Below are positions 14,720 through 41,502 of a DNA stretch of 41,502 bases, piece by piece. Each line of letters begins with the position of its first letter. The stretch's first letter is position 1. Location: IMG/VR virus record IMGVR_UViG_3300019766_000003. One strand, written 5' to 3'. The notes beneath the pieces were generated by a model. It worked only from the letters and a program-made list of their open reading frames with translations, ran no database searches and had not been told where the DNA came from. Source of the stretch: a virus. The translations under genes and the position numbers were made by a program.

Positions 14720-14762
14720 TTCATCATCCTTTTTAAATAGTTGGTTGGGGTATCTTTTTCGT

Positions 14763-14782
14763 GACGTTACGAAAATGATCTA
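14763..14782 (-). repeat. Conserved intergenic element, copy A (minus strand TAGATCATTTTCGTAACGTC)
   Basis: 20/20 identical to 15368-15387, with flanks ~80% similar over ~30 bp. Contains the hairpin TTTTCG-N8-CGAAAA. Confidence 0.85.
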
Positions 14783-15068: not shown

Positions 15069-15107
15069 GTAAAATCTCCTTTTTAAATGGTTGGATGGGT
15101 TTGTTTG

Positions 15108-15347: not shown

Positions 15348-15367
15348 CTACTTATCTCCTTTTCCGC

Positions 15368-15387
15368 GACGTTACGAAAATGATCTA
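15368..15387 (-). repeat. Conserved intergenic element, copy B
   Basis: Identical 20-mer to 14763-14782. Its last 3 nt form the TAG stop of the upstream gene. Confidence 0.85.
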
Positions 15388-15687: not shown

Positions 15688-15866
15688 TACTCCTTCCACC
15701 CTTCGTCATAAATTTCGCCATCGCTTGCACGCCACATGCCTCGCACCTCATGCTTTCTGCATTTCTTGCAAAAGCGTATATCAGACAGCCCGGAGAAGTG
15801 AGACCATTTGGTCCACTCGTGCTTGCACCAGAATCCTTTGATCCACTGAATAAATGTTCTGTTCAT
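15687..15866 (-). CDS. Small Cys-containing protein (59 aa; below the track cut-off)
   Basis: Manual translation: MNRTFIQWIKGFWCKHEWTKWSHFSGLSDIRFCKKCRKHEVRGMWRASDGEIYDEGWKE. It fills an otherwise unexplained gap. Confidence 0.45.
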   Translation of the reverse strand: MNRTFIQWIKGFWCKHEWTKWSHFSGLSDIRFCKKCRKHEVRGMWRASDGEIYDEGWKE

Positions 15867-15869
15867 ATA

Positions 15870-16160
15870 TTATCCAGACGTTGATTCAACAGGGTTAGGG
15901 AATACAATGTCTTCATCGAAGCCGGCACCGACTCTATCAACGGCAGGTCCAAAGTCTGGTGCGTTCCCGCGGTCCATCTCGTAACCGATTTCTTCCAGCT
16001 TACTAACATCAAATAATGATACGGAACGATCTCCGATAGTGTAAAACCCAATTCGACTAGTTGGGCATTCGTCTAAAATGCGTTGTAGTTTTTTTAACCA
16101 TGCTTTCTCTTTTTTGTTCAGTTCCATACCATCAATCCTTTGTCTTGTTGTTTCTTCCAT
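15870..16160 (-). CDS. Hypothetical protein (96 aa)
   Basis: ATG at 16160 (the track used the TTG at 16163). No recognised motif. Confidence 0.6.
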   Translation of the reverse strand: MEETTRQRIDGMELNKKEKAWLKKLQRILDECPTSRIGFYTIGDRSVSLFDVSKLEEIGYEMDRGNAPDFGPAVDRVGAGFDEDIVFPNPVESTSG

Positions 16161-16876: not shown

Positions 16877-17344
16877 CTAAAATGGAACGTCATCCAATCC
16901 GTTTTCCTCACTTGGAAAAGATGGGCCAAGGTCTTCGTCAGGAGGATTATTGTTCTGCTGCGGTTGCTGATATCCACCCTGCTGATGGTTCTGCTGTTGA
17001 CCCTGTTGCGGAGACTTGTCCAGAGCCTGAATGTTCACACCAACGACCTCCGTTTTATAGCGGTTGGTTCCGTCCTGAGCCTGCCATTTGCGTTTCTGCA
17101 ATTTCCCCTCGACAAGTACAAGGCGACCTTTGGACAAATAGTTTTGTGCAAATTCAGCCAGACCTCTCCACAGCACAATGCTATGCCATTCCACCTTATC
17201 AACTTTGTTTCCTGTCTGACGGTCTTTGTACCCTTCATCCGTAGCAAGTGAAAAGCTTGCGACTGCAGTGCCAGAAGTTGTGTATGAAAGCTTTGGGTCT
17301 TCGCCCATGCGCCCGAGTAAAATAACTTTATTCATTGTAGACAT
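16877..17344 (-). CDS. ssb: Single-stranded DNA-binding protein
   Basis: OB-fold N-terminus MNKVILLGRMGEDPKLSYTTSGTAVASFSLAT...WHSIVLWRGLAE, a Gln/Gly-rich linker, and the acidic tip DDVPF. Confidence 0.95.
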   Translation of the reverse strand: MSTMNKVILLGRMGEDPKLSYTTSGTAVASFSLATDEGYKDRQTGNKVDKVEWHSIVLWRGLAEFAQNYLSKGRLVLVEGKLQKRKWQAQDGTNRYKTEVVGVNIQALDKSPQQGQQQNHQQGGYQQPQQNNNPPDEDLGPSFPSEENGLDDVPF

Positions 17345-17346
17345 TT

Positions 17347-18174
17347 TTATCCTTTGATATCTTTAATAATTTTTTCAGCTTCTACGTGTGTCAACTCGTT
17401 AGCTGATTTTATCTTGCGTCCGATTCGCTTGCAGAGGTCTTCGATTCTTTCCTCTCGTGGTGTGTCACCGTAGAAAGCCATGATCTGCTTTCTCTGCCCG
17501 TTGTTCCAAGGCTCTTCCTTTGGGTACCTTATTCCAATCTCTTTTGCTGCTTCGAGTACGGCGGGGTTCTTTTTTGCTATCGCAGACAGTGAGGCCCATG
17601 TTGTTTCAAGTTCGCCTCTATCCTTAGACGCATAAATCTTTTTCACGTCGTCATTTGGAATGTAAGACTCTTGAGGATTTTTTGCCGCACGATCGTCTTT
17701 AGGAGGCAAAGCCCATTCAGGCAGTTTTGGCGGGTCCCACTTGAAAGCAGATATACCTTTGCCCTTATTCGCTCCTTGGTAGTGCTTTCCTTTTTCGCTT
17801 ATAGTGGCATATCCCTCCTTGAGAGAGTATAGATATCTACCAATGCCCCACTGACTACCCGCTCTTTTCATGGCTCCGGACAAGCCGCCTTTAACGGCCT
17901 CAATTTGTGTATTGTCTGAACCGTCCCATTTTGTTACCCACTCTTCACCGCACTTTATGGATATTCCGCAAAGGATGCCTCCGTTTGGTCCAGTTGCAAA
18001 TTCATTCTTCCAATTCTCAGGTCCACAAACATCGTCGAGTCTATTTTGTATAGCACGACTAGTGACATACGCCAAAACTCTAGCCCACACTCCCCTGGCA
18101 CCATTTCCAGCAGACTGGACCCTCCATTCTATGTCCTCAGCCTTAAAAGGCTCTTGTAGCTTTTCCAAGTTCAT
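17347..18174 (-). CDS. Rad52/22-family single-strand annealing protein (recombinase)
   Basis: IEWRVQSAG...AYVTSRAIQNRLDDV...EAVKGGLSGAMKRAGSQWGIGRYLY is the Rad52-like signature. Adjacent to ssb. Confidence 0.8.
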   Translation of the reverse strand: MNLEKLQEPFKAEDIEWRVQSAGNGARGVWARVLAYVTSRAIQNRLDDVCGPENWKNEFATGPNGGILCGISIKCGEEWVTKWDGSDNTQIEAVKGGLSGAMKRAGSQWGIGRYLYSLKEGYATISEKGKHYQGANKGKGISAFKWDPPKLPEWALPPKDDRAAKNPQESYIPNDDVKKIYASKDRGELETTWASLSAIAKKNPAVLEAAKEIGIRYPKEEPWNNGQRKQIMAFYGDTPREERIEDLCKRIGRKIKSANELTHVEAEKIIKDIKG

Positions 18175-22392: not shown

Positions 22393-23220
22393 ATGCACCG
22401 TGGCTATGTAAAACTATGGAGAAAGTCTATTGACTCTGGCCTGCTTCAAAACGCAGAGGCGTGGCAATTTATGTCGTGGTGTCTCTTAAAGGCTACGCAT
22501 AAGCCACAAAAGCAGCTCGTTGGAAAACAGGTTGTAAAGCTAGAGGCTGGTCAGTTTGTTTTCGGTAGAAAGTCAGCAGCGAAGGACTTGTGCTCAACCG
22601 AGCAAAAGATAAGAACATCTTTGAACTTGCTTAAAAGTCTTGATTTTCTAACCATCAAACCAACCAACAAATTTAGCATAATTACAGTTGTAAATTGGGG
22701 GACTTATCAGCAAGAGCAACCAACAAACAACCAGCAACCTAACCAACAAGCAACCAACAATCAACCAACAAGCAACCAACAAGCAACCACAAACAAGAAT
22801 GATAAGAACATTAAGAATGAAAAGAATAAAGAATATTCCCCCGAACTTGAGAAGTTCGTGGACTCGTTTCAAAAGACTATGGTTGATACTTACGGTGGAC
22901 TTGCACCAAAAATAACAACCAGCAGCAGAAACACTTCACTGGATACGGTTAACAAGCTCATTCGGATTGACGGTCATTCACTGGAAGAGATTAGAGCCGC
23001 GATGCTGTGGGCTGTGAAGGATGACTTTTGGAGCAAGAATGCTCGTTCACTCGGACAACTCAGAAACAAGAGCAAGTCAAACGGTATGACGAAATTCCAA
23101 AACATATGGTCTGCTATGAAGAGTGAGCAAGACAAGAAACCAACTGTCGGGAAAACACCAACCTTTTACAAGGAAAACAACGATGAACTTCCAGCCTACG
23201 CAAGAGGACCGATCGGGTAA
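22393..23220 (+). CDS. Replication initiator / replisome organiser
   Basis: N-terminal winged-helix pattern YVKLWRKSIDSGLLQN...WQFMSWCLLKA...GQFVFGRKSAAKDL. Q/N/T-rich linker. Followed by a DnaC-like loader. Confidence 0.7.
   Translation: MHRGYVKLWRKSIDSGLLQNAEAWQFMSWCLLKATHKPQKQLVGKQVVKLEAGQFVFGRKSAAKDLCSTEQKIRTSLNLLKSLDFLTIKPTNKFSIITVVNWGTYQQEQPTNNQQPNQQATNNQPTSNQQATTNKNDKNIKNEKNKEYSPELEKFVDSFQKTMVDTYGGLAPKITTSSRNTSLDTVNKLIRIDGHSLEEIRAAMLWAVKDDFWSKNARSLGQLRNKSKSNGMTKFQNIWSAMKSEQDKKPTVGKTPTFYKENNDELPAYARGPIG
22718..22795. repeat. About 7 tandem 11-bp repeats (consensus AACCAACAAGC) inside the initiator gene, followed by an AT-rich AAGAAT-repeat stretch to ~22840. Candidate origin iterons.
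   Basis: Units at 22718, 22729, 22741, 22752, 22763, 22774 and 22785, read directly. Confidence 0.6.
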
Positions 23221-24706: not shown

Positions 24707-25115
24707 TAGACCAAAGTGCTTTGGAAAGTACATAATAAATAGTTTCAAGTGCATTGGATGTGATTTTGGATCAGAATGCGTATTTGGAGAGAAAGAGATT
24801 GTCGAACCAGTCGAAGGTTTAGATATCTACCACGAAGCGTTAAAAACGTTCGGATCAGAGCCGCAGCTACTGCAAATGGTCGAAGAGTGCAGCGAGCTTA
24901 CAAAGGCAATTGTCAAGCATATTAATCGTGGTCACGATCCTGACAGAGTGGGCGAAGAACTTGCAGACGTCGAAACTGTTATGAACCAGATTAAAATCTA
25001 CTTGAGCGGTAAAGGCGTGGACTACGCAGCGTGTCAGGCGAAGAGTGTGAAGAGATTAAGGGCTAATATTGACCTGGTGAAGTCATGCCTAGACCCTGCG
25101 ACGACAACAAAATAG
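24699..25115 (+). CDS. MazG-like nucleoside triphosphate pyrophosphohydrolase
   Basis: QMVEECSELTKAIVKH...VGEELADVETVMNQIK matches the EExxE...ExxD MazG helices. Cys-rich N-terminal extension. Confidence 0.7.
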   Translation: MNDRPKCFGKYIINSFKCIGCDFGSECVFGEKEIVEPVEGLDIYHEALKTFGSEPQLLQMVEECSELTKAIVKHINRGHDPDRVGEELADVETVMNQIKIYLSGKGVDYAACQAKSVKRLRANIDLVKSCLDPATTTK

Positions 25116-25330
25116 CACTGCTACTACCATGCTCCGGTAACTGCGACTATTGGACAGGGCAGAGAGAACAAGGCGATTGTCCACACCTGTCGAAGTGCCG
25201 GAGATGGTGGAGCGGTCACAACATGCCAAAGGATAAAGACGCTATCCACAAGTTGTACGTTACTGAGTGCAAAAAGATTGAGGCGGTTGCAAATGTGATT
25301 AAGGTTTTTAAAGCGAGGGTGGTTAGATGA
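25085..25330 (+). CDS. Hypothetical Cys-rich protein (81 aa)
   Basis: Overlaps the 3' end of the mazG-like gene. Its last 6 codons and stop lie inside the 25-bp repeat. Confidence 0.5.
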   Translation: MPRPCDDNKIALLLPCSGNCDYWTGQREQGDCPHLSKCRRWWSGHNMPKDKDAIHKLYVTECKKIEAVANVIKVFKARVVR

Positions 25331-25331
25331 A
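25307..25331 (+). repeat. 25-bp perfect direct repeat, left copy (TTTAAAGCGAGGGTGGTTAGATGAA), containing the SD and ATG of the methyltransferase gene
   Basis: 25/25 identical to 25796-25820. The flanking bases differ on both sides. Confidence 0.95.
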
Positions 25332-25800
25332 AAAACAGATTTTAGACGCTTGTTGCGGTAGCCGGATGTTTCACTTTGACAAGTCTAATCCACTTGTCTT
25401 GTTTATGGATTGTCGTACAGAGGATACAACGTTGTGTGATGGTCGGAAGCTTGTTGTTAAACCTGACGTTATTGGCGACTTTAGAAAAATGCCATTTGAA
25501 AGAGAAAGATTTAACATGGTTATATTCGATCCGCCACATTTAAAAGTCGGTGGTGACAACGCTTGGATGGTTAAAAAATATGGAAGGCTTGAAAAGAACA
25601 CTTGGAAGCAGGATATTAAGAAAGGTTTTTCTGAGTGCTGGAGAGTTTTATCTAAGGGTGGAACAATGATTTTCAAGTGGAATGAAACGCAAATAAAAAT
25701 GAAAGAAATCACGCCACTTTTTCCAGAAAGTCCAGTTGTTGGACACAGGACCACAAACAACCTAAAAACACATTGGACAACTTTTTACAAACAAATTTAA
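25327..25800 (+). CDS. SAM-dependent (probably DNA) methyltransferase
   Basis: Motif I-like ILDACCGSRMF. Motif IV-like VIFDPPHL. Then ECWRVLSKGGTMIFKW. Confidence 0.75.
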   Translation: MKKQILDACCGSRMFHFDKSNPLVLFMDCRTEDTTLCDGRKLVVKPDVIGDFRKMPFERERFNMVIFDPPHLKVGGDNAWMVKKYGRLEKNTWKQDIKKGFSECWRVLSKGGTMIFKWNETQIKMKEITPLFPESPVVGHRTTNNLKTHWTTFYKQI

Positions 25801-25820
25801 AGCGAGGGTGGTTAGATGAA
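25796..25820 (+). repeat. 25-bp perfect direct repeat, right copy, containing the methyltransferase stop and the SD and ATG of the next gene
   Basis: See the left copy. The spacing is exactly 489 bp. Confidence 0.95.
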
Positions 25821-26121
25821 GTGTAAAGAATGCGGAAAAACAGTTGGAAGACGGCAGCGCAATGTAAGATACTGCACCGAATGCAGAAAGTCTGCGTACG
25901 AAAAGCTACCAAGAAACAACAAGATTGAATGGTTTCTTGAGCCAAATTCAATAGGAGTTGCATATATGGGACAACAAGGAATATCAGTTCGTTGCGTTAA
26001 TTGTGGAGAGTGGATTGAACTAACAGGCTCAACGATAATGACACGAGACGACGAAGACGGTGAACCATGTTGTAGCGAAAAGTGTTTAACAGAACATGAC
26101 GAAAAGGCGATGGAGGTGTAG
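25816..26121 (+). CDS. Zinc-ribbon protein (101 aa)
   Basis: CKECGK...YCTECRK...CVNCGEW...CCSEKC. Confidence 0.6.
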   Translation: MKCKECGKTVGRRQRNVRYCTECRKSAYEKLPRNNKIEWFLEPNSIGVAYMGQQGISVRCVNCGEWIELTGSTIMTRDDEDGEPCCSEKCLTEHDEKAMEV

Positions 26122-26123
26122 CC

Positions 26124-26387
26124 GTGAAAGAAGAATATAAACAAGAGCAAATACACTTTGGGAAAAATAAAAGAGGACTTAGCTCAAAGATTGGCGAAGA
26201 TAGAATTATAGTCTTATACACTGACGGTGAGCACTACGGTCTTTCTTGGAGACACATTGTTGACGGTGAGGTTGTGCACAAAGAGGGACGTGCATTCACA
26301 CCGGATGCTATGGCTGCGGTTGTCGAGATGTTTGGACAGCTTAGAGGTCCTTTGCCTGAAGGCGCAACTTGGGATGAAGAACAATGA
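26124..26387 (+). CDS. Hypothetical protein (87 aa)
   Basis: GTG start 5 nt after GGAGGTG. Confidence 0.55.
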   Translation: MKEEYKQEQIHFGKNKRGLSSKIGEDRIIVLYTDGEHYGLSWRHIVDGEVVHKEGRAFTPDAMAAVVEMFGQLRGPLPEGATWDEEQ

Positions 26388-26656
26388 AAGATTTTATTAT
26401 TATATTTATATGCAGCTGCAACTTAGCCTTTTCATTTGTCTCAGACATTTCAATGGGAAAGTTGACAGATATGCAGAAGTCTAACTTTGAACAAATACAA
26501 ACAATCAAGTCAGAGCTTGCATACCACGAAAAGTACTTACAAGCATTAGACGTAAACGCAACAAGTGACCGTATTAGAAGCAAACAAACTAAAGAGATAG
26601 TTGACTTTATTTACAACGGGCTTGGCGGTGACAAACATTTAGGAGGGTGGGAGTGA
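26384..26656 (+). CDS. Hypothetical protein (90 aa)
   Basis: ATGA overlap. The start is uncertain; an internal ATG at 26453 is possible. Confidence 0.5.
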   Translation: MKDFIIIFICSCNLAFSFVSDISMGKLTDMQKSNFEQIQTIKSELAYHEKYLQALDVNATSDRIRSKQTKEIVDFIYNGLGGDKHLGGWE

Positions 26657-26754
26657 TCGTAATTGAGCTACCGTATCCACCTACGGTAAACCACTACTGG
26701 GGCAGCCGCAAGACGTTGACAACTTTAGCAGAGGGTGTTATCAATGTCCCATGA
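26653..26754 (+). pseudogene. RusA-like Holliday-junction resolvase, N-terminal 33-codon remnant
   Basis: GTGA-coupled start. VIVIELPYPPTVNHYWGSRK carries the RusA LPxPPS/TxNxYW signature, then stops inside the first codons of the HNH gene. Confidence 0.45.
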
Positions 26755-27569
26755 AAAAGATTAGCACAAAACTGATAAAAAAAGAGTATGAGAGGCTTGG
26801 CAGCATTTGGAAGGCAGCCGAGTCTCTTGGCATTTCTGGGCAAACAGTTCACAGAAGGCTTGTGGCTGCAGGAGTTGATACTTCTTTAAATGTTTTTAGC
26901 AAGGAGGACAAAAAAAGACTTATCGAAGACTACAGTCTGTATAGAGAAGAAAAAATGCTTGACTACCTTGCAATGGAAATGGGTAGGACAAAGCAATTTA
27001 TTTGTCGGCAGGCTGGAAAGCTTGGGCTAACAAAAAATAAAAAAAGAGGATACTATAAATTAGAAATATCTGGCAAAAAATTTGGAAGACTTACAGCTAT
27101 AAGGGAAACCGGAAAAAAGATAGATGGTTGTTTTGAGTGGTTGTTTTTGTGCGATTGCGGCAATGAAATAAGAAGAAAGGCTAGCCTTGTCTCAGGCGGG
27201 TTTGTTATGTCATGTGGTTGCCTACATCGAGATCGCACATCTAAGGCCTCTACGACACATGGGTTAAGCAAGTCTAGGGTATATAAAATATACAACGGAA
27301 TGATTAGTAGATGCAAACACAAGTCGAGAAGAGATTTTAAGTGGTATGGTGGAAAAGGAATTAAGGTTTGCGACGAATGGAAGAGGAGTTTTGAAAGTTT
27401 TGCTAATTGGGCTGCAGAAAGTGGATACAAAGAAGATCTTACAATAGACAGAATAGACAGCGACGGCGACTATTGCCCGGAAAACTGTCAATGGTTAACT
27501 CTTTCAGAGAACGTAAAAAAAGCAAATATGGAGAAGCATGAAATCTCATCACGCTCAAAAAAGAGATGA
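26751..27569 (+). CDS. Free-standing HNH homing-endonuclease-like protein with N-terminal HTH modules
   Basis: GRLTAIRE...WLFLCDCGNE...SCGC...YGGKGIKVCDEW...LTIDRIDSDGDYCPENCQWLTLSEN (HNH-type C-terminus). N-terminal SIWKAAESLGISGQTVHRRL. Confidence 0.75.
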   Translation: MKKISTKLIKKEYERLGSIWKAAESLGISGQTVHRRLVAAGVDTSLNVFSKEDKKRLIEDYSLYREEKMLDYLAMEMGRTKQFICRQAGKLGLTKNKKRGYYKLEISGKKFGRLTAIRETGKKIDGCFEWLFLCDCGNEIRRKASLVSGGFVMSCGCLHRDRTSKASTTHGLSKSRVYKIYNGMISRCKHKSRRDFKWYGGKGIKVCDEWKRSFESFANWAAESGYKEDLTIDRIDSDGDYCPENCQWLTLSENVKKANMEKHEISSRSKKR

Positions 27570-29165: not shown

Positions 29166-29215
29166 GTATCTACAGGTCGAGGCAATTTTATAAATCTTAA
29201 AAAAGGAAAAGAGAG

Positions 29216-29761
29216 ATGAAGATTAAAATTATTTTAGAGCAGCACAAATTATGGCTCGAAACAGATGGAAAAGATGGAGAGCGCGCAGACCTCAGTCACA
29301 CAAACCTCCGTGGCGTAAACCTCAGTGGCGTAAACCTCAGTCACACAAACCTCAGTGGCGCAAACCTCAGTGGCGTAAACCTCAGTGGCGTAAACCTCCG
29401 TCACACAAACCTCAGTGGCGCAGACCTCAGTGGCGTAAACCTCCGTGACGCAAGCCTCAGTGGCGCAGACCTCAGTGGAGCAAACCTCAGTGACGCAGAT
29501 CTCAGTGGCGCAAACCTCAGTCACGCAGATCTCAGTGGCGCAAACCTTGACTTCTCTTGTTGGCCTCTCTGGTGCGGGTCTCTTGGTGTAAAAGTTGATG
29601 ACAAGTTTGTGTGCCAGCTATTTTTTCACTGGTGTAAACTTGACGTATCTGGGTGTTCTCCGTTCATCAGGTATGCGCATCGAGTAATTAGCAAAGGTTG
29701 GGCATGCCTTGGTAATCGCTTTTGTGACACAAGATCAGATATGAACAATAAAAGGCTTTAG
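29216..29761 (+). CDS. Pentapeptide-repeat protein (Qnr/MfpA-like beta-helix) with a Cys/Trp-rich C-terminal domain
   Basis: About 18 consecutive A(D/N)LxX pentapeptides (DLSHT NLRGV NLSGV NLSHT NLSGA ...), then FSCWPLWCGSLGV... Confidence 0.9.
   Translation: MKIKIILEQHKLWLETDGKDGERADLSHTNLRGVNLSGVNLSHTNLSGANLSGVNLSGVNLRHTNLSGADLSGVNLRDASLSGADLSGANLSDADLSGANLSHADLSGANLDFSCWPLWCGSLGVKVDDKFVCQLFFHWCKLDVSGCSPFIRYAHRVISKGWACLGNRFCDTRSDMNNKRL
29286..29550. repeat. About 17 tandem 15-bp units (consensus CCTCAGTGGCGTAAA) encoding the pentapeptide repeats
   Basis: Read directly. High nucleotide identity leaves multiple frames on both strands open. Confidence 0.9.
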
Positions 29762-29769
29762 GGGGTCAA

Positions 29770-29979
29770 TTGAACAAATATTTATCAACGCAAGAATCGG
29801 CTGCTGAGATCGGGGTGTCATCCTCGTATCTCCGGCAGGTTCTTGCTGGCAAGGCAAGTGGCAAGGTTAAGGGCGTTAGTATCGTAGGTGCTGTTAGCAA
29901 AGCAGGAAAGCACTGGATATGGCCCACTGATTTGGTGGATAAAATTAAAAAAGCGAGAGGTGAGAGATGGGTAGACTGA
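29770..29979 (+). CDS. Small HTH protein (excisionase/AlpA-like fold candidate)
   Basis: TTG start after AGGGGG. LSTQESAAEIGVSSSYLRQVLAG. Confidence 0.45.
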   Translation: MNKYLSTQESAAEIGVSSSYLRQVLAGKASGKVKGVSIVGAVSKAGKHWIWPTDLVDKIKKARGERWVD

Positions 29980-30742: not shown

Positions 30743-31112
30743 CGAAGAGTTGAGCTTGAAAGTGGCTGAGTTGCGTGGGGATAGACCTTGGAAGGTATAC
30801 GATTGTTTTGACCTTCTGTGCGCAACCGTCCGTACTGAAAAAGAAGCCAAAAATGCATGTGAGCAGCCTTGCTTTTCATACATTTATGCGCCTAAGAGTT
30901 ACTCCACCGACATGAACCACGCTATGGAGCTGGTGGAGGAGATGTGTGGAAGAGACACAGATTACGAGATAATGAGACGCTGGATAGAAGAAAAGCAGTT
31001 TGAATTTTGTTTTACACAAAAATGTGAACACTTTACAGGCGTTGATATTACACCAGCCCGTGCAATCTGCAAGGCGTACATCGAATGGCAGGAGATGAAA
31101 GATGAAGATTAA
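30735..31112 (+). CDS. Hypothetical protein (phage ABA-sandwich-like)
   Basis: ATG at 30735 after GGAGGAGAGAG. EELSLKVAELRG...YSTDMNHAMELVEEM. Confidence 0.45.
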   Translation: MTNEELSLKVAELRGDRPWKVYDCFDLLCATVRTEKEAKNACEQPCFSYIYAPKSYSTDMNHAMELVEEMCGRDTDYEIMRRWIEEKQFEFCFTQKCEHFTGVDITPARAICKAYIEWQEMKDED

Positions 31113-31473
31113 AAAGTGTCCATTTTGCGGTGGTAAAGACTTTTCAAAGTACGGAAAGTTTGTGGCAGATAAAAAGAAAAGAGACGTCCACGTGCATTGT
31201 CATGGGTGCGGTGCTTGTGGACCAGTTGAAGGTACCGAGCAGGATGCTGTCGAGGCGTGGAATAAACGAGCTGACGGATGGGTTCATGTGGACGATGCAT
31301 TGCCGGAGGAAGGAAAGGCATATCTGTGTCAAATTGAAATACAGGGGGACCTCGGACTGGAAAGGTGGATGGAAGTTGCGTATTTTGTCGAAGATGAAAA
31401 AGAGTTCCACAGACACGATTTCAAAGACAACGTAGGGATAATTGCTTGGCGACCACTGCCGGAAGCTTACTAG
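31102..31473 (+). CDS. Lar-like zinc-ribbon fused to a DUF551-like domain
   Basis: KKCPFCGG...HCHGCGACG...DAVEAWNKRADGW, then VDDALPEEGKAYLC...IIAWRPLPEAY. Confidence 0.65.
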   Translation: MKIKKCPFCGGKDFSKYGKFVADKKKRDVHVHCHGCGACGPVEGTEQDAVEAWNKRADGWVHVDDALPEEGKAYLCQIEIQGDLGLERWMEVAYFVEDEKEFHRHDFKDNVGIIAWRPLPEAY

Positions 31474-41379: not shown

Positions 41380-41502
41380 ATTAGCCAGTACCCACAGTTT
41401 GCCATTTATAAACATTTAGAATAAAGTGTATCAAAAGTTGACCGGAGGATTATATGGCACTTGTTGTCGGAACAGATACATATGCAGACGTTGCAACCGT
41501 AG
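41380..41502. repeat. Terminal direct repeat, copy 2 (identical to 1-123). Includes the duplicated promoter candidate and the first 49 nt of the connector gene.
   Basis: 123/123 identity with the window start. Confidence 0.95.

Follow-up and report, generated by a model that had tools for sequence, protein, structure and literature searches.

Morons, in the classical definition of Hendrix and Juhala, carry a promoter and a terminator of their own. In phage LRRHood, Pope et al. (2011) found genes 43-46, a stretch of 1.35 kb, between direct repeats of 29 bp, of which the first forms the very 3' end of the gene ahead and the second shortly precedes the gene behind, whereas relatives (Cali) have a single-copy empty site; the repeat does not occur in other phage groups and its donor is not known (PMC3029335). 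They also reported that Island3 gene 68 ends with a copy (~50 bp) of its upstream neighbour's C-terminal codons, and both cases were tied to a boundary-sequence model, that is, to recombination at short boundary sequences (PMC3029335). The boundary or 'linker' model of Susskind and Botstein for lambdoid phages is considered here as it is represented in that paper (references 21-22 in PMC3029335). In T4-type phages, Arbiol et al. (2010) described PeSLs, repeated promoter and terminator elements around ORFans, between which recombination deletes genes and yields mini-circles (PMC2839356). Here we analyse a viral DNA of 41,502 nucleotides, IMG/VR record IMGVR_UViG_3300019766_000003 (the window, meaning this stretch at its full length), in which a methyltransferase gene lies between two perfect 25-bp direct repeats. 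The phage, which is uncultured, bears here a real recombination scar: it lies at a gene boundary where the cargo varies, and the gene could plausibly be lost from it with precision. The interpretation first given to the locus is thus supported in part.

The features of the locus are as follows:

25085..25330, plus strand: Cys-rich gene of 81 amino acids (81-aa gene), kept in four lineages; anchor of a variable slot
25307..25331, plus strand: left 25-bp copy, the native tail of the 81-aa gene before it, with a Shine-Dalgarno sequence (SD) and ATGA; orthologous ends in the sister lineages L019, L021 and L022
25327..25800, plus strand: 157-aa class I S-adenosylmethionine (SAM)-dependent methyltransferase (MTase), phrog_954 'DNA methyltransferase', motif I LDACCGS, motif IV DPPH
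25334..26486, plus strand: lineage-specific block with the MTase gene, the right repeat, the 101-aa and 87-aa genes and the first ~34 codons of a 90-aa gene; missing in L021 and L022, where ~100 bp stand in its place
25796..25820, plus strand: right 25-bp copy, a duplicated junction that ends the MTase ORF and lends the 101-aa gene its SD and ATG
25816..26121, plus strand: 101-aa gene, a zinc-ribbon-like ORFan that takes its SD and ATG from the right copy

The repeat, TTTAAAGCGAGGGTGGTTAGATGAA, occurs at 25307-25331 and 25796-25820, with 489 bp from start to start and identity at 25 of 25 positions, and its edges are sharp, the neighbouring base being T versus A on the upstream side and A versus G on the downstream side. 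Exact search of the window thus bore out the perfect repeats, the spacing and the differing flanks reported in the initial annotation of this DNA. Across the whole window and on both strands no further copy was found at up to three mismatches, none of 100 shuffled sequences contained a match, and by analytic estimate a sequence of 41.4 kb should hold ~8e-7 exact 25-mer pairs; apart from the 123-bp overlap of the circular assembly, the pair is the longest exact dispersed repeat of the window. Both copies, exact and with identical flanks, are present in 10 assembly records (ENA k141 contigs, JGI and Logan; three pipelines), some of which may come from the same sequencing runs or share reads. Because copies and flanks agree across these ENA, JGI and Logan records, we conclude that the repeat pair is real and that an assembly artefact, against which the initial annotation had cautioned, is very unlikely.

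The reading frames confirmed that each copy has the two-sided composition that had been proposed for it. The left copy supplies the last eight codons with the TGA stop of the open reading frame (ORF) at 25085-25330 (F K A R V V R *), and it carries GAGG 8 nt ahead of an ATG that overlaps this stop (ATGA) and is the start codon of the MTase ORF (25327). The right copy is read in a different frame, in which it contributes two final bases and then TAA (25798-25800) as the stop of the MTase ORF, while the same GAGG and the ATG at 25816 serve the 101-aa ORF, leaving 15 nt from the MTase stop to the next ATG. When recombination between the copies was carried out in silico, 489 bp were removed and the 81-aa and 101-aa ORFs remained intact and joined by an ATGA overlap, so that the predicted seamless deletion with a functional junction was obtained. 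The empty junction would read GATTAAGGTTTTTAAAGCGAGGGTGGTTAGATGAAGTGTAAAGAATGC, with 25306 joined to 25821, and the corresponding circle junction, from 25795 through one copy to 25332, would read ...TTTTTACAAACAAA, then the repeat, then AAAACAGATTTTAGACG. Searches of GenBank phages, IMG/VR and a set of 5.8 billion proteins with the 81-aa and 101-aa proteins found no homologues outside the 90% cluster of each; the protein search was incomplete, since it missed the L022 homologue of the 81-aa gene that an alignment-based scan caught. A '35-aa' gene called upstream in some contigs reflects a difference between gene callers, the DNA being identical.

The cargo is a single gene. The MTase matches the phrog_954 profile with an E value of 4e-77 over residues 2-156, which is its full length; it fell below the gathering cutoff of Pfam Methyltransf_11 (19.3 bits, cutoff 21.2), and its only match in the PDB was weak (1ve3, E 9e-4). 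In an alignment of 27 members, L6, D7, C10 and G11 as well as D68, P69, P70 and H71 are invariant, the N-terminus of the window's protein is normal and its end lies two residues past the last invariant Lys. Because this alignment shows the protein to be full length, the unique 464 bp that separate the copies amount to one complete MTase ORF and nothing more, as expected of the precise cassette that had been described. By tblastn, 261 phage records matched; more than 7,700 homologues were found at E < 1e-30, the nearest being only 67% identical, in phages of Firmicutes, Actinobacteria and Proteobacteria, and homologues of ~58% identity are carried by phages that infect Staphylococcus, Listeria (A118, A006), Gordonia, Vibrio and Klebsiella. 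Judging by this spread, the MTase is a widely exchanged gene. Its GC content of 0.373, against a gene mean of 0.437 (standard deviation 0.031), is the third lowest among 66 genes, which is suggestive of a foreign origin but no proof of it. The closest relatives were considered as donors and rejected, the best being only 67% identical, so that their flanks are not comparable. From its phrog_954 annotation the MTase may have an anti-restriction role.

Three sister lineages, L019, L021 and L022, from the same metagenome project, were reached through 90% clusters and one alignment-based scan. Their 81-aa genes are ~92%, ~92% and ~87% identical, respectively, to that of the window in nucleotide sequence, and all of them end in a diverged version of the repeat, with the DNA alignable through it. 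In L021 and L022 this version is TTTAAAGCGAGGGTTGTAGGATGAG, encoding ...FKARVVG* where the window has ...KVFKARVVR*, and in L019 it is ...TTTAAAGCGAGAATAAGATAATG, encoding ...FKARIR*. Because the 81-aa gene ends in a diverged repeat in all three sisters, the 25-mer is the native 3' end of this gene and not a module that travels with cargo. The suggestion that it is a conserved translation-initiation module did not hold, the 25-mer being a lineage-specific gene end that is used at no other junction of the window. Moreover, both window copies share G15, T18, A19 and A25 where L021 and L022 have T, A, G and G, and because these four diagnostic bases of the right copy match the left one, the right copy is a duplicate of the 81-aa tail that stems from the window's lineage or a very close relative.

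What stands downstream of the 81-aa gene differs from lineage to lineage. In the window the MTase, 101-aa and 87-aa genes follow; in L019 the slot holds a radical-SAM gene (phrog_9298) that starts at a TAATG overlap; and in L021 and L022 the 90-aa gene comes directly after the single diverged copy, in L022 with the ATG inside that copy starting the homologue of the 90-aa gene by an ATGA overlap, and it is not until 26487 that similarity to the window returns. None of the MTase, 101-aa and 87-aa genes gave a tblastn match in the L021 and L022 loci, so that these lack the 101-aa and 87-aa genes as well as the MTase. Thus, where the initial annotation had looked to relatives for an empty site or for alternative cargo, the second was found, in the radical-SAM gene of L019 and the missing block of L021 and L022, and the exact empty site was not. 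A further slot, empty in the window, precedes the 81-aa gene; in it L019 (405-662) and L021 (763-1020) carry an 85-aa gene (phrog_1714) whose window homologue lies elsewhere, on the minus strand at ~15858-16121, and L022 (4406-5008) carries a different DNA methyltransferase (phrog_757, E 6e-61). Because the slots on both sides vary among lineages, the 81-aa gene is a conserved anchor in a hotspot for accessory genes, with its tail acting as the start signal for the next gene.

Beyond these lineages, the exact 25-mer was not found in IMG/VR or in 160 related loci (2 Mb), nor was its 21-mer core in GTDB genomes; it was also absent from JGI contigs, a weak zero, as this set was partial and missed contigs known to carry the repeat. 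Hence the same 25-mer flanking other cargo in relatives, which the initial annotation had anticipated, was not encountered in IMG/VR, GTDB, the partial JGI set or the 2 Mb of loci. Megablast of the locus against GenBank phages gave no match, and members of the 87-aa and 90-aa gene clusters led to no additional lineage. Exact-protein contig look-ups with three genes yielded ~19 contigs, all of one clone and with every locus filled, and no circle junction was visible in contigs.

Some contig ends deserve mention. Several short contigs have an end right at a lineage breakpoint: Logan and ENA contigs end at window position 26491/26492 or begin at 25109, and one JGI contig (L020) begins just past the left copy. 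These ends hint at co-occurring variants that branch in assembly graphs. A further contig (L013, 1536-1810; ENA ERZ27248154 k141_103372) is identical to the window over 25585-27119 and then continues into unrelated sequence within the HNH gene, representing either a variant without the remainder of that gene or a chimeric assembly.

Set beside the described systems, the locus resembles LRRHood in that its cargo lies between perfect direct repeats of 25-29 bp, one copy closing the gene ahead of the cargo and the other shortly preceding the gene behind it; LRRHood differs in having four genes and an exact empty site, whereas the window has one ORF, an exact empty site was not found, and its sister lineages are without a larger block. 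Like the PeSLs, the window's repeat places expression signals around cargo, but PeSLs occur in many copies with a promoter and a terminator stem-loop, whereas here there are two copies of a translation signal only. With morons it shares an accessory gene of atypical composition between two genes of a temperate phage, but the MTase ORF has no promoter or terminator of its own and is translationally coupled into the operon. As in the linker model, a short homology sits at a gene boundary, on a stop/start overlap among the accessory genes of a lambda-like phage; a linker, however, should recur across junctions and phages, which the 25-mer does not. The case therefore differs from its precedents in detail (a translation-only signal, a single ORF, ATGA coupling and a Rad52-type annealase) and not in kind, and its logic has already been published by Pope et al. 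and by Arbiol et al.

The annealase and its neighbour are encoded elsewhere in the window:

17347..18174, minus strand: Rad52/22-family single-strand annealing recombinase (PF04098, E 3e-18, 66.5 bits, cutoff 20.3)
16877..17344, minus strand: SSB gene adjoining the recombinase gene (PF00436, E 7e-35)

The best explanation of the repeat pair, in which we have moderate confidence, is that the junction was duplicated when the MTase gene and the 101-aa gene both came to follow the 81-aa gene. The last codons of the 81-aa gene would double as a ribosome-binding site (RBS), an ATGA or TAATG overlap starting whichever gene follows, and the 101-aa gene would once have stood directly behind an 81-aa-type gene whose tail served as its RBS. 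The most probable and simplest route is one unequal crossover between two close relatives, the one arranged as anchor, junction and MTase and the other as anchor, junction and 101-aa gene; it would have joined the MTase stop to a point ~24 nt short of the stop of the partner's 81-aa gene, with a shared TTTAA as possible microhomology. The duplicated junction would provide SD and start codon for the MTase and again for the 101-aa gene. Recombinants without the duplicated SD would leave the 101-aa gene untranslated, and a duplication of just the size of the junction would survive because only recombinants that carry the SD still translate this gene. Composition and distribution suggest that the MTase was the newcomer. 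The two copies now form a pair on which the annealase of the phage could act to excise the MTase precisely. According to De Paepe et al., efficient pairing takes at least 23-27 bp with Redbeta and 31-34 bp with RecA, and Rad52-like recombinases drive short-homology exchanges (PMC3945230); because the Redbeta minimum is 23-27 bp, 25 bp would be just enough for the phage's annealase. We infer a crossover of this type, and likewise that the deletion actually occurs.

Several observations weigh against this origin by junction duplication. No lineage was found in which the 81-aa gene, one copy and the 101-aa gene follow each other, the ~19 contigs including no empty site, and none in which anything other than the repeat stands behind the MTase. 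All contigs that bear the MTase or the 101-aa gene belong to one clone (99.2-100% identical), and because of this the order of events and the type of crossover cannot be read from them. The complete identity of the copies is a weak sign of recency, zero differences over 25 bp having a chance of ~0.1 at the ~8% divergence between lineages. Finally, the databases are incomplete, as both the JGI contig scan and the protein search missed known carriers.

The next explanation in order is a Campbell-type insertion, in which a circle consisting of one copy and the MTase ORF would have entered the 81-aa/101-aa junction by homologous, annealase-mediated recombination and, like the PeSL mini-circles of T4-type phages, would cycle between integrated and excised forms. 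Such an insertion would account for exact direct repeats that enclose precisely one ORF; 25 bp lies inside the Redbeta-type pairing minimum (PMC3945230), a Rad52-family annealase is encoded, and ORFans flanked by PeSLs do form circles (PMC2839356). A JGI contig (L020, Ga0193963_1034369) begins exactly at 25332, the first base past the left copy, as a circle might predict, yet it reads on through the right copy, which would not be expected with a co-occurring empty-site variant, and the ~19 filled contigs count against this explanation too. Moreover, the repeat is specific to the lineage and was seen in no other context in IMG/VR, the partial JGI set, GTDB genomes or the related loci, so that the circle would have to stem from the same lineage and the first duplication would be left unexplained. 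We rank the Campbell-type insertion second because it presupposes an earlier duplication, though its product is identical, and consider it unlikely.

Alternatively, the copies could be held identical by selection or gene conversion as a shared translational control site unrelated to gain or loss. Both copies do act as SD and start codon, and short RBS words recur at consecutive junctions of other phages. The identity, however, extends 8-11 nt upstream of the SD, through sequence that is coding in one copy and stop plus spacer, in another frame, in the other; RNA structure was not significant in either copy (z = +0.96 and -0.41), there was no Rfam match, and no third gene carries the 25-mer. 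We therefore give shared control little credence. A bolder proposal, of which we are equally doubtful, is that the 81-aa gene's tail, with its RBS, and the Rad52-type annealase jointly make up a recombinase-light docking site, at which promoterless single-ORF cassettes (MTase, radical-SAM and others) might be gained, stacked and lost through ~25 bp of homology by way of small circles. If it were true, temperate phages would have integron-like cassettes without integrase or attC, and an anti-restriction MTase would be carried reversibly.

A transposon target-site duplication or an integron-type cassette is very improbable. Direct repeats do surround a single promoterless ORF, and GTTAGAT in the repeat, as read from the sequence, fits the integron core GTTRRRY. 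The insert, however, has no terminal inverted repeats and no room for a transposase, all 464 bp of unique DNA being MTase ORF; attC would not fit into the 15 nt that separate the MTase stop from the ATG behind it; and to our knowledge a 25-bp target duplication is atypical of known transposons. Both readings were rejected after the promoter and terminator scan, Rfam, inverted-repeat search and RNA folding had all come back null: no promoter- or terminator-like sites were found at either copy or at the insert borders, where counts equalled shuffle expectation. Pfam marks on called genes revealed no integrase within 5 kb of the locus, no gene-by-gene screen of the window having been made. Weakest of all, an assembly artefact or chimera, conceivable for a metagenome-derived contig, is hardly credible, given the identical flanks in 10 records from three pipelines and a repeat that is below the final k-mer size implied by the contig names (k141).

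Bracketing by repeats was surveyed among 77 homologous MTase ORFs and 844 neighbouring control ORFs in IMG/VR by recording the longest word common to start and stop regions. This word was usually 6-8 bp long, and the window's 25 bp was the longest in the survey. The MTase family as such was not significantly enriched in bracketing, with words of at least 13 bp in 2/77 against 8/844 controls (p = 0.20). In L062, the 16-bp word GGGAGCTGAGGGATGA stands on both sides of the homologous MTase (2989 and 3468), and the upstream gene and the MTase both end in ...GAEG* with ATGA overlaps. L062 is an independent second bracketed case in the family, and its MTase is like Island3 gp68 in ending as its upstream gene does; the window differs from Island3 in that the copied codons fall into a different reading frame, the repeat contributing no more than the Ile and the stop of its MTase. 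The exact L062 16-mer occurs once in L187 (2935), followed by a different gene, and in L185 (2351-3960) four or five consecutive small genes end in ...SGAEx*, encoded by GGGAGCTGA...ATGA, which combines an SD with a stop/start overlap. Thus L062, L185 and L187 hold true recurring boundary sequences, and so the recurrence expected of linkers, whereas the window has a two-copy duplication only. A second recurring word, CGGAAAGYAAGGAGGGGTGAAATG, encoding ...KAESKEG*, was also seen in this group of phages, which is unrelated to the window.

Inside the window, no other junction resembles the 25-mer above the SD/ATG background, the best reaching 15/25. This one, before the gene at 29967 (29947-29969), reads AAAGCGAGAGGTGAGAGATG, agrees in register with the 25-mer at AAAGCGAG and GGTG, and follows a gene ending in ...KARGERWVD*. 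A degenerate third copy and an SD-driven chance match are both conceivable. A second pair of RBS plus start (29204-29228 / 31090-31114; AGGA..GATGAAGATTAAAA) is 22/25 identical, and the genes that it starts, with six genes in between, both begin with MKIK. It may be a weaker, older duplication of like kind, or chance.

An exact 123-bp terminal overlap (1-123 / 41380-41502) indicates a circular or circularly permuted assembly with a true length of 41,379 bp. The window is the complete genome of a lambda-like phage, for which GenBank phages offered no close relative, with an N-type antiterminator, a DnaC/IstB-like loader, DUF1382, a MazG-like protein, an M15 peptidase and structural genes; the Rad52/22-family annealase, SSB and a Gp157 homologue form a leftward operon, and the repeat locus lies in the accessory region between replication and lysis genes. 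In GTDB genomes the best matches to the large terminase, at no more than 61% identity, are genes of Gammaproteobacteria prophages (marine metagenome-assembled genomes, Colwellia, Enterobacterales), and because of these matches the host is probably a gammaproteobacterium; neither the flanking genes nor repeat-like sequence were found in the terminase-matched genomes.

Other parts of the window also vary. Of a RusA-like resolvase no more than the first ~29 codons are left, in a 35-aa ORF at 26647-26754, and this ORF is directly followed by an HNH endonuclease gene (26751-27569; phrog_374, E 2e-56), which appears to have replaced most of RusA, L021 having an intact 124-aa RusA at that position. 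The pentapeptide-repeat protein gene at 29216-29761 contains 15-bp periodic repeats (29238-29592) and is 60 bp shorter in a JGI contig in L005/L015 (161 aa versus 181 aa), so that repeat number is polymorphic in the population. Within a 275-aa replication-initiator-like gene, 22715-22793 is an 11-bp tandem array of five or six AGCAACCAACA-like units, which is either like the origin iterons in lambda O or codes for a Q/N/T-rich linker; L022 is 96.5% identical at this array and mosaic elsewhere. Two pairs of 23-29-bp direct repeats (91-93% identical), at 14727-14782 and 15077-15099 / 15359-15387, lie in the divergent regulatory region between rightward late and leftward early genes and may be operator or attachment-type sites.

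The locus gives an example, at base resolution, of a promoterless foreign ORF placed between coupled genes with neither silenced, the junction being duplicated in the process. Together, the sister lineages and L062 suggest that RBS-bearing gene ends mark variable accessory slots, and the case bears on the old debate over illegitimate versus short-homology recombination as the source of phage mosaicism. It predicts that precise 489-bp deletions, and possibly circles, would arise at a low, annealase-dependent frequency. If the MTase protects from restriction, its gain and loss would alter the host range of the phage.

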